From IMG/VR virus record IMGVR_UViG_3300044844_000428: a stretch of DNA of 64,000 nucleotides; one strand, 5' to 3'. The position numbers were made by a program, and so were the translations under genes. The notes under the pieces were generated by a model. It did not search any database, was not told where the DNA came from, and saw only the letters and a list, made by a program, of their open reading frames with translations. Positions 2,768 to 55,596 of this stretch are shown here, piece after piece. Numbering within the stretch: position 1 is the stretch's first letter; each line of letters begins with the position of its first letter. The stretch comes from a virus.

Positions 2768-3814
2768 TTACTTTTCGTTCAATAAGAACTTCTGAGAGAT
2801 TGCTTTGAATGAGAATTGACCATCAGTTCGTTTGAATACCAGACCTTCTCTAACTTTAGCATTAATCGATTCACCTTCAGCCATCTTCAATATGTCTTCA
2901 ATATTTCCATGCGGTAAAGGACCGACGTAATAAGTAGGAGCTTTGTCTCCTGTATAACCTAATTCTCGCAATTCATCAATACGGATCATTCTATCGGCAA
3001 AATCAAGATAGCATTGGTTATCAATGTCAAAAATATCGAAAATGAACAACTTATGATAATCAAATCCTTCTTTATTACCTTGAATACCAGGTCCCATTAA
3101 TTCACCTTGGACCGCAATATTCTCATTAAGTGCAATCAATGCTTTCAGTAATCCAGTCGACTTAGCAATCTCAACGAATGAATTGCCTTCTTGCTCAAGT
3201 TTCAAATCTAAATTTCTTGAACAGACACCTACCAAACCAGCATTATGATAAACTGTGCATGACGAGCCATCTAACTTCAAAGACACTTCAAAATGCCTTT
3301 GGTGGAAAAATTCATGGTCAATTTCTTCTACCAAATTCTGGCATCTTTCTTGGTCAGTCTTGCGGATAAATGCAGGAAAATTACCTTTCATCTGACCACG
3401 AAGATTTGCAGGAATAGGAGCTTCCCATTTCTGAACATTCAAAAAATCAGATACATCTATAGTTTCTGCTGAGTCTGGCAAATGACTATTATATTCAGTA
3501 GAGTCCAAAAGATTCATTGGTAATAGTAATCCTTGAGACACTTGACCTTTCAACTTGATAGTTCTTAATCGTTCACCTTTAACACCATTATACTCTTTAG
3601 GTTCTTTACCTTTAGATAAGAATGGAGCAATATCATGAGGAATCCAAGAATCGATTTCAGCATAGAGTACTAAATCACCTACATTATATTTTCCCACTTG
3701 GTCAACTACCCACCAACCTTTAACTCTGTATGCACAAATCAAATCAGCACCAGTAATGGATTTGATTTCAACTACTGGATTGATAGTAACCATTTTTCTA
3801 AATTCTACAGGCAT
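2768..3814 (-). CDS. RNA ligase, Rnl2/DRB0094-like, with N-terminal OB-like domain
   Basis: KLDGSS adenylation motif, GELMG, FDIF, REGLVFK, FKAIS; start at 3814 has a GGAG RBS. Confidence 0.88.
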   Translation of the reverse strand: MPVEFRKMVTINPVVEIKSITGADLICAYRVKGWWVVDQVGKYNVGDLVLYAEIDSWIPHDIAPFLSKGKEPKEYNGVKGERLRTIKLKGQVSQGLLLPMNLLDSTEYNSHLPDSAETIDVSDFLNVQKWEAPIPANLRGQMKGNFPAFIRKTDQERCQNLVEEIDHEFFHQRHFEVSLKLDGSSCTVYHNAGLVGVCSRNLDLKLEQEGNSFVEIAKSTGLLKALIALNENIAVQGELMGPGIQGNKEGFDYHKLFIFDIFDIDNQCYLDFADRMIRIDELRELGYTGDKAPTYYVGPLPHGNIEDILKMAEGESINAKVREGLVFKRTDGQFSFKAISQKFLLNEK

Positions 3815-3825
3815 ATAAGTTCTCC

Positions 3826-4122
3826 TCAAATATCAACTAAAATTTTAACTTCGTCCCAACCAATCCATTCCCAATCCGGTTTAACAATGATTTTGTATCT
3901 TGTAGAAGTACCTTGTTCTATACATTTCTGGTTTAGATTATCCACAAGTACCAAAGCATTGCAAAGTGACTTTGCAGATTCAACACCTTTCTTTGTGTTG
4001 GTATTAACAATAAGATATTCATCTAATTTTTCAAATTGCGCCATAATAACCTCATAAAGTATTGACAATATCATTATATCATATAATACAGTCTTGTAAA
4101 CATTAATGCAGAGTTTGTCCAT
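3826..4122 (-). CDS. hypothetical protein
   Basis: ORF track; true start probably internal MAQFE. Confidence 0.55.
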   Translation of the reverse strand: MDKLCINVYKTVLYDIMILSILYEVIMAQFEKLDEYLIVNTNTKKGVESAKSLCNALVLVDNLNQKCIEQGTSTRYKIIVKPDWEWIGWDEVKILVDI

Positions 4123-4287
4123 TTCTCATAACAGCACAGACACCGGCAAGGTATTGTTTTAATGTCTCATTAGCAATCATATCTGCAAAAGTTTCTAATG
4201 GGATTTTCAAGTCCTCATCCGATGTGATAACACCATCATTACTAACTTTAAATCCAGCTCTTTCAGCATATTCATATAACCAATACA

Positions 4288-4464
4288 TTATCTACTCCAA
4301 TTATCATTCCAACGATGACTATGTTGGTACTCGTGCCAATGGTTATTATGATTGGGATACAATACAACAGTGCCTGGATAATAACTATATCCGCGATAAG
4401 AAGTGGGATATACTGCACATCCAGTAAGTAAGCAGCAAACAAACGTAAAGTATAAATTCTTCAT
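4288..4464 (-). CDS. small putative lipoprotein (58 aa, not in ORF track)
   Basis: MKNLYFTFVCCLLTGC signal peptide with LTGC lipobox; His/Trp/Asn-rich tail. Confidence 0.6.
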   Translation of the reverse strand: MKNLYFTFVCCLLTGCAVYPTSYRGYSYYPGTVVLYPNHNNHWHEYQHSHRWNDNWSR

Positions 4465-5937: not shown

Positions 5938-7126
5938 AGATGCTTTACCTGTGCAAAATCTAAAAGTATTTTTACTTTTTCTACTGGAATAATCAAATCA
6001 CCATAATCGTCAGTAGTTCCTGATGCTATTGCTTTAACAATTAGTTCCAAGTCTATGTATCTCACCCAATAACCATCATCTGATTCTTCCATCAAATGGA
6101 TACCAGCATTAAGTTTAAATCTTCTCATACTCCCTCGCCATATAGTTTTTTAATTTCATCGTACCGTGATAATGGCCATACAGTTTCGAACTCGTCATTA
6201 TCTGTTTTGTTAAGACAAAATTTAAGCACCTCAGCATAATATTTACCTGCGCGTTCTTCTGGCACTTGTTCAGCAACTTCAATTGCCAATTCTGCATTAG
6301 TAAAAACTCCAACCACGTAAGAATGTCTTTCACGGTCACCGAATCTATAAGCTGTTACGACATATACATTAGCCATTAGTATTCTCCAAGTTTAAGTTCA
6401 TTAGAAATATTATCAAACCAACAAGTATCACTACCATGAGGATCTAACTTCTCTGGTATGAACAAATGTTCCCATCTTCTAGATTCATTGGACGTAACTT
6501 TAACTTGTGCATCCTGAGGAAGAGTTTGTAGATACGTCATGAATTCAGCTACAGTAGTCATTATTTTACTCCAAAATGGTTTCTAATTCTTTTTGCGCAT
6601 TCATCCACAACAAATCCATCCACTGGACCATAGTGTTCAGTTCCTGTTACAGACGAGCATTGACTGATACATTCTTGTATAATCAATTCAGCAAACTTTT
6701 CAACGTCCCGAGTCAAGTTAGAAGTATTCCATCCATCATCATCAAGTAGTTTAACTTGGTAAGCAAGTTCTTTAATTTTATCTTTCATAATTTGGTTCCA
6801 ATGGCTCTTTCAGCTTCAAGTTGGTTCAATTTAAAATTTTCGAGTATTTCAGCAAGAGTCTGTTCTAATACATTCATTTTATTCTCCTAGCAATCATTAG
6901 AACATTTACGGATTTCTTCGAGTGTATAGACTCCGCCATTGACGATAACCATCAAGCCAATTTTAGTATTAAATACCTTGAAATATGAATGCTTAGTTGA
7001 TTGATAGATGATTCCACTGGTAAGTACGGCGCCAATGAGTAATCCATATATTGCAAATAGGATATTGGTTTTGAAAGCAGGATTTGCTTTGGTGATTTTT
7101 GATAGCATGATTAAGTTCCTCGTCAA
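5934..7126 (-). other. run of small hypothetical ORFs (5934-6128, 6125-6376, 6376-6561, 6561-6788, 6887-7108 membrane)
   Basis: Abutting ORFs downstream of the promoter at about 7140-7168. Confidence 0.6.
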
Positions 7127-7180
7127 GTTAAGATGGTACTATTATATCATATAGTACCATCTTGTACATTATTATTTTAG

Positions 7181-7235
7181 TATAAATACAATAATGGAAC
7201 TGCATAGGGATATGCATGGACAAGGATGTTCAAAC
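7181..7235 (+). ncRNA. candidate late sRNA with CsrA/RsmA-type GGA sites
   Basis: TATAAATA at 7181-7188, then four A(N)GGA motifs, two in hairpin loops (TGCATA-GGGA-TATGCA; ACA-AGGA-TGT). Confidence 0.5.
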
Positions 7236-7676
7236 TAAATCTACGAATAACCCAACTTCTTCAAACATAGCTTTTGATTTAAGCCAAGAGTCATACCAAT
7301 TAGGTTTAGACATTAGACATTCTTTACTTACGTAAATCTCACTAATTCCAACTTGAATAATTCCCTTGGCGCATTCAAGACATACTGGAAGTCCATACAC
7401 ATATATTGCTGCTCCATCTAATGATGTTCCTGTATATGAAGCATTATAGATTAGATTCTTTTCAGCATGTACAATATAGTCATACTTAATTTCACGATTT
7501 TCTAATCTCTCAATAGTATCAGATATTCCTCTTGGAAAACCATTGAACCCAGTAGCTAAGATTTGTTTTTTGCTTCCTACTGCAACTGCACCGACTTTAG
7601 TACTGGGGTCTTTGGACCATAAGGACACAGCTTTCGCCATGTCCATGAATCTATTATTCCATTTGTTTTCCATCAT
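7230..7676 (-). CDS. cd: dCMP deaminase
   Basis: SKDPSTKVGA, GFNGFPRG, VHAEKN, PVCLECAK zinc motifs. Confidence 0.95.
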   Translation of the reverse strand: MMENKWNNRFMDMAKAVSLWSKDPSTKVGAVAVGSKKQILATGFNGFPRGISDTIERLENREIKYDYIVHAEKNLIYNASYTGTSLDGAAIYVYGLPVCLECAKGIIQVGISEIYVSKECLMSKPNWYDSWLKSKAMFEEVGLFVDLV

Positions 7677-7942
7677 TATCTGCGTTCGTAAATATACACA
7701 TCAGATCTTTCAGAGTGCTGAATTTTGATGTTATAGAACCATGTTGGTTGGTTATAATAGTAAGGAGCTGCGGGATTATCATGGCCTAGTCTACCACGAA
7801 GAACTACTCTTTGTTTGACTTTACGAAGATGGTTTGTTTCATTAATATATTGGCGTAACTGTTCAACAAATACTCGGTCAACTGGGTTGGTCATTTTGAC
7901 AGTGGTAACATAATTTTTAGAAGATCTTGGTTTGCTGCTCAT
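7676..7942 (-). CDS. hypothetical protein
   Basis: 88-aa ORF with its own upstream promoter (about 7996-8024). Confidence 0.65.
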   Translation of the reverse strand: MSSKPRSSKNYVTTVKMTNPVDRVFVEQLRQYINETNHLRKVKQRVVLRGRLGHDNPAAPYYYNQPTWFYNIKIQHSERSDVYIYERR

Positions 7943-8026
7943 AATATAAAATTCCTGTGTTAATTTATGATTACCATTATTAGTAACCTGAAGCTATTAT
8001 ATCACACCGATTATAAAAGTACACTA

Positions 8027-8695
8027 TTATTTTATCAAATGGAAATGTTTTTCATAAACATGAAGCGATGTTGCATTCCAGATAATATCACCGATTTCGC
8101 ATTGTACTCCACTCTCATTAAGACATTCATGCAATTCAGTATGGACGTGCTGTTGCCAATATAAGTCATTTTTATATCCAAAAATTGCATCATTTGACCT
8201 CATTTGTACGAATGCGTGAAGTTTATTATTTCTAATAAGATATTGAACTGTATTGGTGCAAATAAAATCAGACATTCCCATGGTTTCAAATTCGGCCCAA
8301 ATAGAAGGCCGGGTATAAATCATTATTGCTCTTCTAGAGAATCTATTTCTTACTAATTCTTGAAGTACGTTCTGGAATTGATAATGGTTTTCTCTTGAAT
8401 AAACACACCAACCATAATTAGAATTTATCATTCCATTTGCATCGGCAACCTGTTTCCACACTGCTGGAGTTTCACCTGGAATGTCATTAACGTTAAGAGA
8501 CATAGATTTGTACCATTCTATTTCTCTTTTAGCATAGTCTTCATTAAGAGTTCCAAAGATAGCAGGTTCACTAGCAATAAATGATGTTCCGACAATTTCA
8601 ACCATTTTGCAACCGGTCTTGTCTATTACAAATTCGTCATTTTCCAATAGTGACTTAAATTCATTTCTAATATCTTTTACGGAGTATTGTTCCAT
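8027..8695 (-). CDS. 42: dCMP hydroxymethylase (T4 gp42 ortholog)
   Basis: Near-colinear with T4 gp42: DKTG, REIEWYKS, DIPGETP, INSNYGW, SRRAIMIYTRPS, SDFICTNTVQYLIR, MRSND..FGYKND (Asp specifying cytosine), SLHVY. Confidence 0.95.
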   Translation of the reverse strand: MEQYSVKDIRNEFKSLLENDEFVIDKTGCKMVEIVGTSFIASEPAIFGTLNEDYAKREIEWYKSMSLNVNDIPGETPAVWKQVADANGMINSNYGWCVYSRENHYQFQNVLQELVRNRFSRRAIMIYTRPSIWAEFETMGMSDFICTNTVQYLIRNNKLHAFVQMRSNDAIFGYKNDLYWQQHVHTELHECLNESGVQCEIGDIIWNATSLHVYEKHFHLIK

Positions 8696-13959: not shown

Positions 13960-14019
13960 GGTTGATCTCGGTAAGTTTAATAAAGGTCTATTATAACACA
14001 TCCTTGTGTTATGTACACA

Positions 14020-40719: not shown

Positions 40720-43206
40720 TTAGAAGAATGCATCTAAAGTCGATTGCTCTTTTAAATTCCAACCAATAGCATCGACAATCTTTTCTAATGGATTCAAGAA
40801 CACTTTTTCAAACTGAGTGTTGTAGTCAATATACTTATGTAATCCGAATTCCATTGGTAATTCAGTAGGGAATCCAATAACATCTTCTTTAATAGTATTT
40901 GGGAGTTTCAAATAAACATATTTTAATTTGTCTCCTGCGCCTATTAAAGGATACTTCTGATCAAGTTTCATATCTTTAACAACTTTATTGTATAATAAAC
41001 CTCCTCTGACATAAATCGGACAGCCTTTAGAATAAATAGTTTTGTCATTAGAAAATTTTATCATTCCGTTAACTGTACTTGGAATAGCAATATCTTCTAC
41101 TGCTAATGTTTTAAATTCCTGTCTAGTGTCTTCAATGAATCTTATGAGGTCCAAATTAGTGTCATTAAAAATAATATCAATAGTTGACTTCAATTTTTCT
41201 CTTATGGCAGTTGGAGTCGATGACTTTACAATCTCAATGCCCATAATTTTCATTTTTGGTTTATCATACTGAACACCTTCAGAGTTATGAACTCTTAATG
41301 CATATCTTTTCTTAGCCGTCCACAAACCTTTATCAGCAAGTACTTCTCGTTTCATTTGCATCTTTTGTTCATAGGCATTCATGTACTCTGCTAACTCGAT
41401 ATATGATTTTTCTATTAACGGAGTTAAGACTTTGCCACAGAATGAATCCATGAATTTGATTTTATCTTCTGTCGATTTTTCACCTTGAGTTGTTTCGACC
41501 AAAGTTTCCAATGATACGTACACAGAATCGGTATCCGAAGCAATAATATAATCAGTGTTATTTGTTTTCAAAGCTGAATTCAAATATTTGTTAATTCTGT
41601 TTGCTATCCATTTTATCGAGAACTGTCCAGATGATGTTATGGATTCTGCCATTCTCAAATCATAATATCGGAAGTATGGCATTCCAATAGCTCCGTATGC
41701 ACTGTTTAGTGTTTCCTTTAGAGCTAGTTGCAAGTTATTAAGTCTTGAAATTTCTTTTGATAGTTCCTTATTGTTCTTATCACTCTCGTATTGCTGTTCA
41801 TGCTTTAACATTTGTTTCTTATGCATAGAACGATTTGCATACATAGTGTCCATCAACTCTGGTAGGAATCCGCGCTTATCTTTAGAATAGCACCAACCAT
41901 TAGCAGTAATTGCATAATCAACTTTTGGAAGTTCAATTTTGTCTAATAAATTATCAATAGTGAATGACAATTTCGTAGTTGTTAATGTTTCTGGGCTGAT
42001 ATTGTATTGCATTATTAGATGAGGATATAATGATGCCAAATCGAATGACGCGATCCATTTATGAATGCCAGTAATAGGGGTCTTTACATAGGCACCCATT
42101 AATTCTCCTTTAACATTTCGGTCCATGTTAGGAATAATAATGTTCTTATTAATAAGATAGTGATAGATTGTAGAGTCCCATAGTCTAACCGGACTAAATG
42201 CTTCTTGATAATTAATCTTGGCAGTATATGCCATTGTGAGTTGTAACTCGATAAACTTTAATTGCTCATCCAATTTATCAATAAGCAATACGTCATGATA
42301 ATTGTAATCAGTATATGTAGTCCAGTCATTAGAGTAAAATTCCTTGAAAGTATTCCATTGGCTATGATCCAGTTTTCTTTCACCAAGTTCTACAAATGCT
42401 ATATGGTCTAGTCTGTATGACTCCTGGTTCTTTTTAGAATATTTCTTATAGAGTTCAATATAGTCTAAAGATGACACTCCAAGTATTTCATAAGTCTGTT
42501 GTTCTACGTTATTAACCTTTTTAGAACGTTCATTGACTATATTCCATGGAGAAAGTTTTTTAACATAATCTTCTCCTATAGTTCTTAGTAGTCTATTAAT
42601 AATGTACGGAATATCAAAGTTGTCAATATTCCAACCCGTAATAATGTCAGGGATTCTTTGTTGCCAATGAGTCACAAATTGCTGAAGTAATTGATTTTCG
42701 TCTTTACAAAGAACAAAATCTGCTTTATGTTTTCCTTCATAAGGTCTAGATCCAAATATTTTTGTAGATTTAGTTTTAAGATCTCTGACAGTAATTAGTA
42801 GAATTTCTTCATTAGCATATTTTGGATGAGGAAAACCAGATTCTTCATTTGCAGTTTCTATATCGATAGCAATGATTTTTAATAAGTCAGAATCAAACTT
42901 TATATCGGTTTTGTAATTTTCTTCAATATATTGATATGCATAGTTTGTTTGTCCATACACAGGCATCGCATTTTCATAAGTTTTTATGAAATCTTTACAA
43001 TCATTTATGGTACCTGGTTTTATTTCGTATAATTCTACTCCATGTAAAGACTTGAATGAAGAAGATTCTGAAGATTTTCCTGATGTGGTATATAAGGTAG
43101 GGTAAAAATCGATTTTCTGCTTTTGTGGCAATCCATCTCTAATAGATCTGACAAGTATTTTATTACCATATTGGATTGTATTTGTATAAAATTCGTTAAT
43201 CATCAT
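40720..43206 (-). CDS. 43: family B DNA polymerase (unsplit)
   Basis: DIET, GWNIDNFD, SFDLASLYP, LNSAYG, SDTDS, KKRYAL. Confidence 0.98.
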   Translation of the reverse strand: MMINEFYTNTIQYGNKILVRSIRDGLPQKQKIDFYPTLYTTSGKSSESSSFKSLHGVELYEIKPGTINDCKDFIKTYENAMPVYGQTNYAYQYIEENYKTDIKFDSDLLKIIAIDIETANEESGFPHPKYANEEILLITVRDLKTKSTKIFGSRPYEGKHKADFVLCKDENQLLQQFVTHWQQRIPDIITGWNIDNFDIPYIINRLLRTIGEDYVKKLSPWNIVNERSKKVNNVEQQTYEILGVSSLDYIELYKKYSKKNQESYRLDHIAFVELGERKLDHSQWNTFKEFYSNDWTTYTDYNYHDVLLIDKLDEQLKFIELQLTMAYTAKINYQEAFSPVRLWDSTIYHYLINKNIIIPNMDRNVKGELMGAYVKTPITGIHKWIASFDLASLYPHLIMQYNISPETLTTTKLSFTIDNLLDKIELPKVDYAITANGWCYSKDKRGFLPELMDTMYANRSMHKKQMLKHEQQYESDKNNKELSKEISRLNNLQLALKETLNSAYGAIGMPYFRYYDLRMAESITSSGQFSIKWIANRINKYLNSALKTNNTDYIIASDTDSVYVSLETLVETTQGEKSTEDKIKFMDSFCGKVLTPLIEKSYIELAEYMNAYEQKMQMKREVLADKGLWTAKKRYALRVHNSEGVQYDKPKMKIMGIEIVKSSTPTAIREKLKSTIDIIFNDTNLDLIRFIEDTRQEFKTLAVEDIAIPSTVNGMIKFSNDKTIYSKGCPIYVRGGLLYNKVVKDMKLDQKYPLIGAGDKLKYVYLKLPNTIKEDVIGFPTELPMEFGLHKYIDYNTQFEKVFLNPLEKIVDAIGWNLKEQSTLDAFF

Positions 43207-45795: not shown

Positions 45796-46746
45796 CTATT
45801 TAAACCTACAGGTTGCCATAATTTCAGTCAAACATGCCATTGTGTTAATTTCACGGTCAATGGCAAATGCATTACGATATCCCCATTCACCAAGAATTAG
45901 AACGACTTCAGGAATGCTAGGTTGTTCCAAATAGTCAATTGCTTTGTCATATAGTTTTCTATAAATTTCACTAGGTTCCGAGTCAGTATTACTGCTTACC
46001 CATTTACGAACCTCAGTGAAGTTCTTTTCTTTTAATAATTTAACAAGATTAGAAAAATTATCATCAGAAAGATTCACTAATAATCCAACGTCAATTTTAC
46101 CTGATACAGAATACCTTTGAAGTTCATTCAATATTCTTCTATAATCTGGAAAGTGTTTGATGACCAATTCAGATACAACCTTAGCATCAAATTCAACATT
46201 TTCTGATTTTAAGATTTGTGTTACTCTTTTAAAGAATAATGCAGCTATTAATTGTTTATCTTTATTAGAAATTTTAAACTCAATGCATGTGCATCTGCTG
46301 TGAAGTGGTTCAATAATTCTATCTTTGAAATTACAAGTGAATATGAATCTGCAATTAGCAGAGAATTCTTCCATAAATGAACGTAACGCCGGTTGGACAG
46401 AATTGGGATTCATATAATCAGCTTCATCAATAATGATTACCTTTTTAGAATCAGTAAGAGATACAGTTGAAGCAAAACTTCGAATAGTACCTCTTAATAC
46501 TTCAATTGATCTTCCTTCATCTGATCCATTAATGACAATATATTCAGCACCAATTTCATTACATAGAGCTTTTGCTATTGTTGTTTTACCAACGCCAGCA
46601 GTTCCTGATAAAAGAAAATTTGGAAGTTGTGATTTGCTTACAAATTCTTTAAATGTCGTTTTGAGAGATTCAGGAAGAATGCAGTCTTCTATATTTTGAG
46701 GACGGTATTTTTCTACCCATAAGAATTGATTGTCAATAGTGTTCAT
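45796..46746 (-). CDS. 44: clamp loader large subunit
   Basis: WVEKYRP, GVGKTT, IIDEAD, LHSRC, FPDYRR. Confidence 0.97.
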   Translation of the reverse strand: MNTIDNQFLWVEKYRPQNIEDCILPESLKTTFKEFVSKSQLPNFLLSGTAGVGKTTIAKALCNEIGAEYIVINGSDEGRSIEVLRGTIRSFASTVSLTDSKKVIIIDEADYMNPNSVQPALRSFMEEFSANCRFIFTCNFKDRIIEPLHSRCTCIEFKISNKDKQLIAALFFKRVTQILKSENVEFDAKVVSELVIKHFPDYRRILNELQRYSVSGKIDVGLLVNLSDDNFSNLVKLLKEKNFTEVRKWVSSNTDSEPSEIYRKLYDKAIDYLEQPSIPEVVLILGEWGYRNAFAIDREINTMACLTEIMATCRFK

Positions 46747-46761
46747 TATATAAAGTTCCTA

Positions 46762-47424
46762 TTAGATATTAAAAGTAGAATCTGCCTCGATACCGACATA
46801 ATAGACCAAATCAGATGTTGTTGAAGAGAATCTTGATACTCTTTTAGAAGAAATAGAAACTTGATATTCTCCTGGGATAAATTTTAGCATGTCAACTTTA
46901 ACATTAACTTTGAATTCTAAGTCTGTATTGCCAAGTTCCAATTCAAAAGAATTTGAAGTGTCATTTTTCTTATCAGCAACTACAATTTTGACTTGACCAT
47001 CTTGACCAACAAATGACACATCAGACGCTTTTAATACTGATGCAGTTTTACTGATAAGTGATAAATTTTCAGCAGTGAGTAATAACTGAATCTCTGCTTC
47101 TGGAAAATTGATGTCCTTTTTTGGAACTTCAAGAACTGATTCATCAGCAGCATAATATTTTATGGAATTATTTTCTTCAAAGATTTTAACATATTTTTCA
47201 TTAAATTCTAATTCAGGATTTTGAAATAATGATAATACACTAAGGAACTCTGATAGATCGTAAATGCCAAATTCAATAGGGAATGTGTCAGATACTGTTG
47301 CTGTTGATAATAGAGTGTTTTGGATTGTTCTGGTTTTTAGAATATTTCCAGGAGAAAATAAAATATTTTGATTAATACTACTATAATTTTTTAATACAGA
47401 TAACGTGTCTTTGCTAAGTTTCAT
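46762..47424 (-). CDS. 45: sliding clamp
   Basis: MKLSKDTLSVLKNYSSIN, FGIYDLSEFL. Confidence 0.96.
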   Translation of the reverse strand: MKLSKDTLSVLKNYSSINQNILFSPGNILKTRTIQNTLLSTATVSDTFPIEFGIYDLSEFLSVLSLFQNPELEFNEKYVKIFEENNSIKYYAADESVLEVPKKDINFPEAEIQLLLTAENLSLISKTASVLKASDVSFVGQDGQVKIVVADKKNDTSNSFELELGNTDLEFKVNVKVDMLKFIPGEYQVSISSKRVSRFSSTTSDLVYYVGIEADSTFNI

Positions 47425-50263: not shown

Positions 50264-50271
50264 TATTTATA
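50264..50271 (-). promoter_or_regulatory. late promoter inside tRNA cluster
   Basis: TATAAATA 10 nt upstream of tRNA-Tyr. Confidence 0.55.
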
Positions 50272-54773: not shown

Positions 54774-55316
54774 TCATACTAATTCTCCGTATAATGAATC
54801 AAGAGTAGAAGTGCTTAATAATTTCTCTTTTAATACTTTATCTTTTTTTAATACTTCTGGCTGTTCAACATTAGAAAATTGTTGTAAGAATTCTCTGTAA
54901 GAATTCACAAATTCTACGTCGTCATCATGCCCCTGCAGATCTAAGACTTTATTTCCAACAGATTGTATAATTTTGTGTTTAAGAAGAAATTGATGTTTTT
55001 CTTTTGCAATTCTTCTAAGATAAGCAAAATAGACTATTTGAGTAAAGTATGCAAATGGATTAGAATATTTTTCGTGATCGAATTTATCAAAGTATAGTAT
55101 GCAGTTTTCAATAGCATCAGAAATCATTTCGTCTTTGAATGAATAACCATTAAAATTGCCTTTTGCTGCTAATTTTGAGGCGATTAGTAAGATACATTCA
55201 CCAAGGTATTCAGTAATGACTGGTTTAGGAAGACCCTGTTCCTCTGATAATTTTAATAGTTGTTTTCTTTCTACAATAGCTTCATAGAAGGCTTTGTTGT
55301 CTATATAATCTGCCAT
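54774..55316 (-). CDS. 55: late sigma factor
   Basis: YIDNKAF, NFNGYSFKDEMISDAIENC, NPFAYFTQI, RRIAKEK. Confidence 0.96.
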   Translation of the reverse strand: MADYIDNKAFYEAIVERKQLLKLSEEQGLPKPVITEYLGECILLIASKLAAKGNFNGYSFKDEMISDAIENCILYFDKFDHEKYSNPFAYFTQIVYFAYLRRIAKEKHQFLLKHKIIQSVGNKVLDLQGHDDDVEFVNSYREFLQQFSNVEQPEVLKKDKVLKEKLLSTSTLDSLYGELV

Positions 55317-55596
55317 GATATAACTCCAATTAGTTTTGTATTCTTTATTATATAATGCAAACACACATTTGTAAACATTATGATTTTCGTAAGATAGTCA
55401 GAACCGTGTGTTTTTCATGAAATTACTAGTAATAGAATCATTGACTTAGGGACTAGTTTTTCATGATTTTCTTGAAGATGATGGAATATATGTCTTATTT
55501 TTAAAAAAGCTTGTCTGGTTGACCCGTTCTGAATAAATCCATTACATATCATTAACTTATATTAAAGTTACCATTTTCATTAAAAATAATTATTTC

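Follow-up and report, generated by a model that had tools for sequence, protein, structure and literature searches.

A conserved 52-bp non-coding block beside the cd gene of a freshwater T4-like phage: a possible late antisense RNA with a CsrA-type site at its 5′ end

In an uncultured freshwater T4-like phage, we identified a block immediately downstream of the dCMP deaminase gene cd, at positions 7181-7232 of the 64,000 nucleotides analysed here (hereafter, the window). Judged from its alignment among relatives, this block is a clearly selected, tiny non-coding element. The best explanation of the block, to which we assign a probability of about 0.35, is a late RNA antisense to cd whose 5′ end would constitute one CsrA-type dimer site. 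The major capsid protein and the DNA polymerase of the phage are 50-60% identical to those of cyanomyoviruses, and the metagenomes that contain its DNA come from lakes and freshwater (19 studies); no RNA run was present among the public runs listed for the phage locus.

Nearly all genes of the window lie on the minus strand, as do all the neighbours of 7181-7235. The gene cd (7230-7676, minus strand), to which the putative late RNA would be antisense, is separated by a 103-nt spacer from a small hydrophobic ORF (6887-7108, minus strand; ATG start at 7108). At least five different neighbours can stand beside cd, this ORF among them. Two separate elements are found in this spacer: the early promoter that drives the small ORF, located at 7141-7168, and the GGA block at 7181-7232.

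The original prediction described, within 7181-7235, a plus-strand late promoter followed by four A-N-GGA motifs, one of them in a hairpin loop and another close to the CsrA consensus; reading the sequence directly, we found every one of these features where it had been placed. The T4-type (gp55) late promoter core, TATAAATA, occupies 7181-7188 on the plus strand, with an invariant ATAAATA and a first base that is T or C in relatives. The first A-N-GGA motif, ATGGA (7194-7198), lies at the predicted RNA 5′ end and is single-stranded, being unpaired in 10 of 10 variant folds. The second, AGGGA (7206-7210), has its GGA within the loop of hairpin 1 (7202-7215), which is composed of a GCATA/TATGC stem, invariant in the 10 variants, and an N-GGA tetraloop (GGGA in the window). 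Here TGCATA (7201-7206) pairs with TATGCA (7211-7216), the added T-A pair 7201/7216 being specific to the window. The third motif, ATGGA (7216-7220), is not conserved, since its GGAC is GAAC in half of the variants (5/10). The fourth, AAGGA (7222-7226), has its GGA within the loop of hairpin 2 (7218-7231), of the form G(G/A)ACA-AGGA-(U/C/A)GUUC, in which ACAAGGA and GUUCA are invariant and the 3′ arm overlaps the cd stop codon. Inside hairpin 2, ACAAGGAUGU (7220-7229) matches the CsrA SELEX core, and GGACAAGGATGT at 7218-7229 coincides with RUACARGGAUGU at 11 of 12 positions, that is, with the one mismatch that had been claimed.

As to how often such motifs arise by chance, TATAAATA by itself is not enriched in the window (8 found versus 12.9 expected), and four GGAs in 31 nt are not rare in 64 kb, for which an analytic Poisson estimate gives about 0.4 clusters on the plus strand and about 4 on both strands. 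The sequence ACARGGATGT was found three times against 0.2 expected; the other two copies are part of a promoter spacer and of an ordinary ribosome-binding site. Because TATAAATA and the four-GGA cluster are each unremarkable in DNA of this length, the weight of the observation comes from conservation. The same two figures, together with the loss of one of the four motifs in relatives, are what can be said for chance or neutral hitch-hiking, by which the block would be an AT-rich spacer with meaningless motifs. We consider this highly improbable, and it is already disfavoured by the alignment: 37 of the 52 columns of the non-coding block (71%) are invariant, versus 229 of 447 (51%) in the neighbouring cd coding DNA of the matching lineages, whose proteins diverge by 25-30%, and the variable sites are restricted to positions that the proposed model leaves free.

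The relatives were reached through the cd protein (70-75% identical) and provided 10 distinct variants from about five lineages (alignment A4); nucleotide searches of the phage collection, in near and distant modes, gave no match. No change was seen across the 10 variants in ATAAATA, ACAAGGA-N-GU, the two 5-bp stems or three of the four GGAs. On the plus strand, the pattern reads [T/C]ATAAATA, 5-6 variable bases, A-N-GGA, 3-4 bases, GCAUA[N-GGA]UAUGC, 1-2 bases and G(G/A)ACA[AGGA](U/C/A)GUUC, the final bases of the block being the complement of the cd stop codon. Variation is found at the first base of the promoter, in the spacer before the first GGA, at the N of each A-N-GGA, in the flanks and in the linker between the hairpins, as well as at one stem position (A-U to G.U) and at the base after the GGA of hairpin 2 (U, C or A). 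Thus, the first GGA is kept in four contexts (AUGGAAC, ACGGAAC, ACGGAUC and (G/A)AGGGAUA), and in the loop of hairpin 1 the first base is G, A or T and the GGA is fixed. Two variants with identical cd proteins, L265 and L266, differ in this loop base. Conservation stops exactly at the upstream border of ATAAATA. The original prediction depended on its motifs recurring in related phages. The promoter, the hairpin, three GGAs and ACAAGGA-N-GU do recur, so the comparison does not overturn it; the motif at 7216-7220 has to be given up.

The block is fused to the cd stop codon in front of five different downstream contexts, namely, a membrane ORF, a 'MAYF' ORF, a 2OG-Fe oxygenase gene, a 134-aa ORF and a reverse-strand NUMOD3 endonuclease gene. 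The last of these, a homing-endonuclease gene, lies at 3573-4289 (minus strand) of L266, directly beside the block and on the strand opposite to cd; the cd protein of L266 has three different neighbours, depending on the contig. The block is absent from lineages that combine a cd protein of at most 69% identity with an overlap between the cd stop codon and the following gene. In T4, where cd likewise overlaps the next gene, a pattern search found no such element. A covariance model (R1) revealed no second copy in the window, where the block is therefore single-copy, and gave no match on 154 loci from more distant cd lineages. Pattern scans of IMG/VR returned nothing beyond two variants already known, and additional metagenome DNA contigs contributed one new variant only (7201 T>C), plus insertions at 7126-7164.

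No conserved ORF was found on either strand of the block. The plus-strand ORF that begins at a conserved ATG was discarded as a coding candidate, since it comprises 8, 8, 34, 23 or 21 codons and its length is thus not conserved. A minus-strand mini-ORF starting at an ATG in hairpin 1 was also rejected, given its non-synonymous changes and the frame shift in L265. The indels of the block, found in two variants (L101 and L265), are of 1 nt and hence not multiples of three.

The late-promoter claim fits the gene content of the phage and the alignment: the window encodes a gp55-like late sigma factor (54774-55364, minus strand; phrog_234, E = 3.5e-50), and all 10 variants keep [T/C]ATAAATA with no conservation of what lies upstream. 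Promoters of this type consist of a -10 element and need no -35 element. A gp45-like clamp, part of the late machinery, is encoded at 46762-47424, and a gp44-like clamp loader at 45796-46746. TATAAATA is also found 25 nt before the tail-tube gene. In cyanophage S-PM2, NATAAATA has been described as the late-promoter form, and ATAAATA is the core of T4 and cyanophage late promoters (PMC2984593). This heptamer is avoided about threefold in the window, with 17 copies found versus 48.5 ± 7.8 expected and only four on the plus strand, a scarcity that is consistent with selection against stray late promoters. Because the word is so strongly avoided, a surviving copy has weight, and an invariant copy at the very edge of the block is unlikely to be accidental. 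The other plus-strand ATAAATA sites, at 41032 and 53723, are without GGA hairpins. From the geometry of T4 late promoters, we infer a transcription start at about 7194, the position of the first A-N-GGA. Taken together with the folds described below, we regard the block as rather likely to be a late plus-strand RNA element. A plus-strand sigma-70-like promoter match, TGTACA-18-TACAAT, is specific to the window.

Elsewhere in the window, TATAAATA also occurs at 50264-50271 on the minus strand, between the genes for tRNA-Cys and tRNA-Tyr. A sequence similar to the beginning of the putative block RNA, AATAATGGAGG, comes after it, and this copy may be a late promoter within the tRNA cluster.

Predicted folds bear on the strand. 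For each of the 10 variants, the minimum-energy fold of the plus-strand RNA consists of two hairpins, hairpin 1 included, with a GGA in either loop and the first GGA unpaired (-6.9 to -10.1 kcal/mol). The consensus fold of the plus-strand RNA retains both hairpins versus one for the minus-strand RNA. The latter forms both hairpins in only 5 of 10 variants, and its hairpin 2 has an internal AxC mismatch in five. This discrimination comes from one G/A column: the second pair of hairpin 2 is A-U or G.U in the plus-strand RNA and A-U or AxC in the minus-strand RNA. The loop-closing pair of hairpin 2, in contrast, favours the minus strand in four variants, where it is G.U on the minus and AxC on the plus strand. 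Single-RNA fold z-scores are modest (-0.3 to -2.8). As the stems do not vary among the 10 variants, none of their pairs offers a compensatory double change, and the two-hairpin structure remains a prediction from folding.

These observations must be weighed against a sense-strand function, in which the block would be a minus-strand element of the 3′ end of the cd unit and the late-promoter match a coincidence. Candidates for such an element are a Rho entry (rut) site, rich in C and poor in G with UCC at regular spacing, an RNase E site (GU/AUUU behind a hairpin), hairpins that protect the 3′ end and an anti-SD sequence. Transcription of the region along with cd is certain, and the block is the border of a conserved module. 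Its sense strand has 13 C versus 5 G in 50 nt, though C is the rarer base on that strand genome-wide; GUAUUUAU fits an RNase E site; and hairpin 1 is possible on both strands, to which the G.U closing pair of hairpin 2 in the sense RNA of four variants can be added. In the window only, UCCUUGUC (7219-7226), just past the cd stop codon, can pair with GACGAGGA (7117-7124), the ribosome-binding site of the next ORF. However, relatives have other genes downstream, so that this anti-SD pairing is not maintained. Furthermore, rut sites prefer unstructured RNA and are rarely conserved base by base, hairpin 2 has an internal AxC mismatch in 5 of 10 sense RNAs and is missing from their consensus fold, and no terminator-like site was found. 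A sense-strand element would also leave unexplained the invariant ATAAATA at the end of the block, in a genome that purges this word. On balance, we consider a sense-strand function unlikely.

If the block is read from the plus strand, its RNA would necessarily run into cd. The claim that it would be antisense to the 3′ end of cd holds by geometry, as the cd stop codon falls within hairpin 2 and no terminator precedes cd. On the plus strand, no terminator-like site was found within about 600 nt, and the sole one is located at 7872-7887, about 680 nt downstream. The next 440 nt of the plus strand contain four GGAs, which is the background density. An Rfam search over 6000-8500 (E ≤ 10) yielded no family match save a chance hit to U4atac. 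The proposal of a sponge of the CsrB/Rsm kind did not survive these results: with three conserved sites only, no terminator, no Rfam match and a background density of GGA downstream, the block is not a multi-site sponge like CsrB or RsmZ.

What the block resembles, as far as sequence and predicted structure go, is a single high-affinity CsrA dimer site: it has two hairpins with GGA in the loop, spaced by 16 nt, and one further GGA. A GGA in a hairpin loop with the ACA..GGA..GU context is present in 10 of 10 variants. The variable base of the phage block corresponds to a free position of the RsmE consensus, A/UCANGGANGU/A. Among the ligands obtained by SELEX with CsrA, ACA and GGA were 100% conserved, with GGA in the loop of a hairpin (PMC4347634). 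Selection in the phage block acts on the loop sequence and not on pairing alone, which argues for recognition by a protein rather than for mere antisense pairing or 5′ stabilisation. From this likeness, we tentatively infer CsrA as the partner of the putative RNA, an identity that is possible but doubtful.

Whether the host offers such a protein bears on this identification. Gammaproteobacteria, put forward in the original prediction as the likely hosts, are one plausible host class, and CsrA was present in 104 of 121 sampled members (sensu GTDB), a tally that includes two genomes flagged as unpublished (G045 and G123) and becomes 102 of 119 without them. The cellular homologues closest to the phage cd (loci L185-L249; 59-63% identity) belong to SUP05/Thioglobus/Ruthia-type gammaproteobacterial genomes, including complete chromosomes, and the likeness of the sequences may reflect gene exchange between phage and host. 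A scan of genome contigs for clues to the host gave just these cellular cd homologues of SUP05/Thioglobus-type genomes. No csrA gene was found in three partial relatives of the phage, and a crude scan for its motif gave none in the window either.

The late promoter and its RNA could also be real and CsrA uninvolved, with an antisense transcript that shuts down or processes the cd/hmC-precursor operon. In that case, the GGA hairpins would serve to stabilise the 5′ end, as SD-like sites for binding the 30S subunit or as the site of an unknown phage protein. This explanation shares all the evidence on promoter and conservation, and the overlap with the 3′ end of cd comes with it by necessity; an antisense RNA has a precedent in a T4-like phage, CfrI of S-PM2 (PMC2984593), and the host may lack CsrA. 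Nevertheless, pairing or stabilisation alone would not fix the loop GGA and yet leave the adjoining loop base free, four-base loops are ill-suited to pairing with 16S rRNA, and no candidate phage protein is known. We hold an antisense transcript of this kind, free of CsrA, to be somewhat improbable.

Under the preferred explanation, a CsrA-type dimer site at the 5′ end of a late antisense RNA, the gp55-dependent promoter [T/C]ATAAATA would start the RNA at about 7194 on the plus strand. Its first ~38 nt would form a module consisting of a single-stranded A-N-GGA followed by two 5-bp hairpins with N-GGA and AGGA tetraloops, the second of which would carry ACA-A-GGA-N-GU, and the RNA would continue antisense into cd. 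Abundant late in infection, this RNA would bind one dimer of a CsrA-family host protein, i.e., one that recognises GGA hairpins. It would serve either as a small decoy, lifting CsrA control at this late stage, or as an antisense RNA that is itself controlled by CsrA. The most far-reaching version, in which this clade of freshwater T4-like phages makes a late leader RNA that captures a host CsrA/RsmA dimer and so reprogrammes host translation, in addition to being antisense to cd, we consider unlikely as a whole.

The putative RNA shares with CsrB, CsrC, RsmX, RsmY and RsmZ the GGA in the loops of short hairpins, one ACA..GGA..GU site and the proposed titration of the regulator. These sRNAs, in contrast, have 5-22 sites and a Rho-independent terminator and are under GacA/UvrY control, whereas the block has three conserved sites and neither terminator nor Rfam match, would be transcribed from a phage late promoter and would continue as a putative antisense transcript. 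It is closer to single CsrA dimer sites such as the SELEX ligand RUACARGGAUGU, which likewise has invariant ACA and GGA (PMC4347634). The leaders of CsrA-controlled mRNAs offer a further comparison, since the 16 nt between the two GGA hairpins of the block is a spacing that one dimer can bridge. The glgC and pgaA mRNAs have such two-site leaders, and McaS is a small sRNA that binds CsrA. Unlike leaders bound by CsrA, the block is phage-borne and controls no Shine-Dalgarno sequence or ORF. Rho termination, too, can be controlled through CsrA bound to a leader (PMC4052769).

Among phage RNAs, CfrI of cyanophage S-PM2, a T4-like phage, is similar in being a non-coding antisense RNA that extends over the end of a metabolic gene, beside a spot that a homing-endonuclease gene can occupy (PMC2984593). 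There is no relation in sequence or structure, CfrI has no GGA hairpins, and it has been seen experimentally, whereas the block RNA is predicted from sequence. In T4, late promoters stand beside hairpins at the ribosome-binding sites of I-TevI and other late-translated genes, where TATAAATA is likewise directly upstream of SD-like GGA hairpins (PMC2988022). These hairpins gate translation of the ORF downstream, while the block is not followed by a conserved ORF. Phages do interfere with the Csr system, as shown by the csrA homologues present in about 1.2% of their genomes (PMC7366521); these genes act through a protein, whereas the block is proposed to act as a decoy RNA. In the literature searched, no phage RNA that binds or titrates CsrA was found.

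If the proposal is true, the block would specify an RNA decoy of the global regulator Csr/Rsm, the first one to be encoded by a phage. Should it bind CsrA, lytic phages would be seen to use a 40-nt RNA against a global regulator that acts after transcription, and its pattern would provide both a sequence signature for decoys in metagenomes and a hint on the host of an abundant lake phage. Even without CsrA, the conservation pattern predicts a start at about 7194 and a GGA-dependent function.

The changing neighbourhood of cd suggests one more possibility, a site acting at the DNA level on the edge of a hyperplastic region, either as a recombination or homing-endonuclease target or as a protein-binding site. 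The block does border the spot where neighbours are swapped, and in L266 it is adjoined by the NUMOD3 homing-endonuclease gene. Gene conversion, however, would also homogenise the adjacent 3′ coding DNA of cd, yet this is less conserved than the block, and the real break points are located in the early-promoter repeats at 7126-7164, outside it. A DNA-level site is, thus, very unlikely.

The early promoter of the spacer, a strong one that takes up half of the intergenic region and was overlooked in the original prediction, is of the sigma-70 type (7141-7168, minus strand), with a -35 element TGTACA at 7168-7163 and an extended -10 element TGATATAAT at 7149-7141. The window has 15 copies of TGATATAAT, where 3.3 would be expected. 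Fourteen copies belong to the minus strand, and the majority share a (G/T)T(G/T)TAC -35 element and a gene start 40-60 nt downstream. They define an early-promoter family, (G/T)T(G/T)TAC-N14-TGATATAAT, often with AATAATA upstream, of which minus-strand examples are located at 2667, 4081, 7149, 8004, 16986, 17977, 18260, 28547, 39518, 43240, 44968 and 47459. A role of the TATTTATA word as an UP element of the early promoter was rejected, since it stands at varying distances from the early -35 element (12 to 33 nt) and the early promoter is missing altogether at this place in two lineages. Another early-promoter spacer contains a hairpin, AACACA-AGGA-TGTGTT (13998-14014, minus strand), which shares the ACAAGGATGT word with the GGA block and would stay untranscribed from the promoter that holds it.

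The -10 element of the promoter beside cd lies in the loop of a 13-bp inverted repeat (7130-7163), and this 13-bp hairpin accounts for most of the fold z-score of -5.4 obtained for 7110-7250. The segment 7126-7164 is an insertion-deletion hot spot that is without insert in the window. In a 98%-identical record (G001; L001 2030-2400) and in a contig of run X6, it holds an insert of about 320-343 nt with one ORF (MAYFNN...) and a promoter copy on each side; in a contig of run X16, 912 nt are inserted at the early-promoter site. These inserts look like gene shuffling through recombination between promoter repeats and resemble the PeSL cassettes of T4-type phages.
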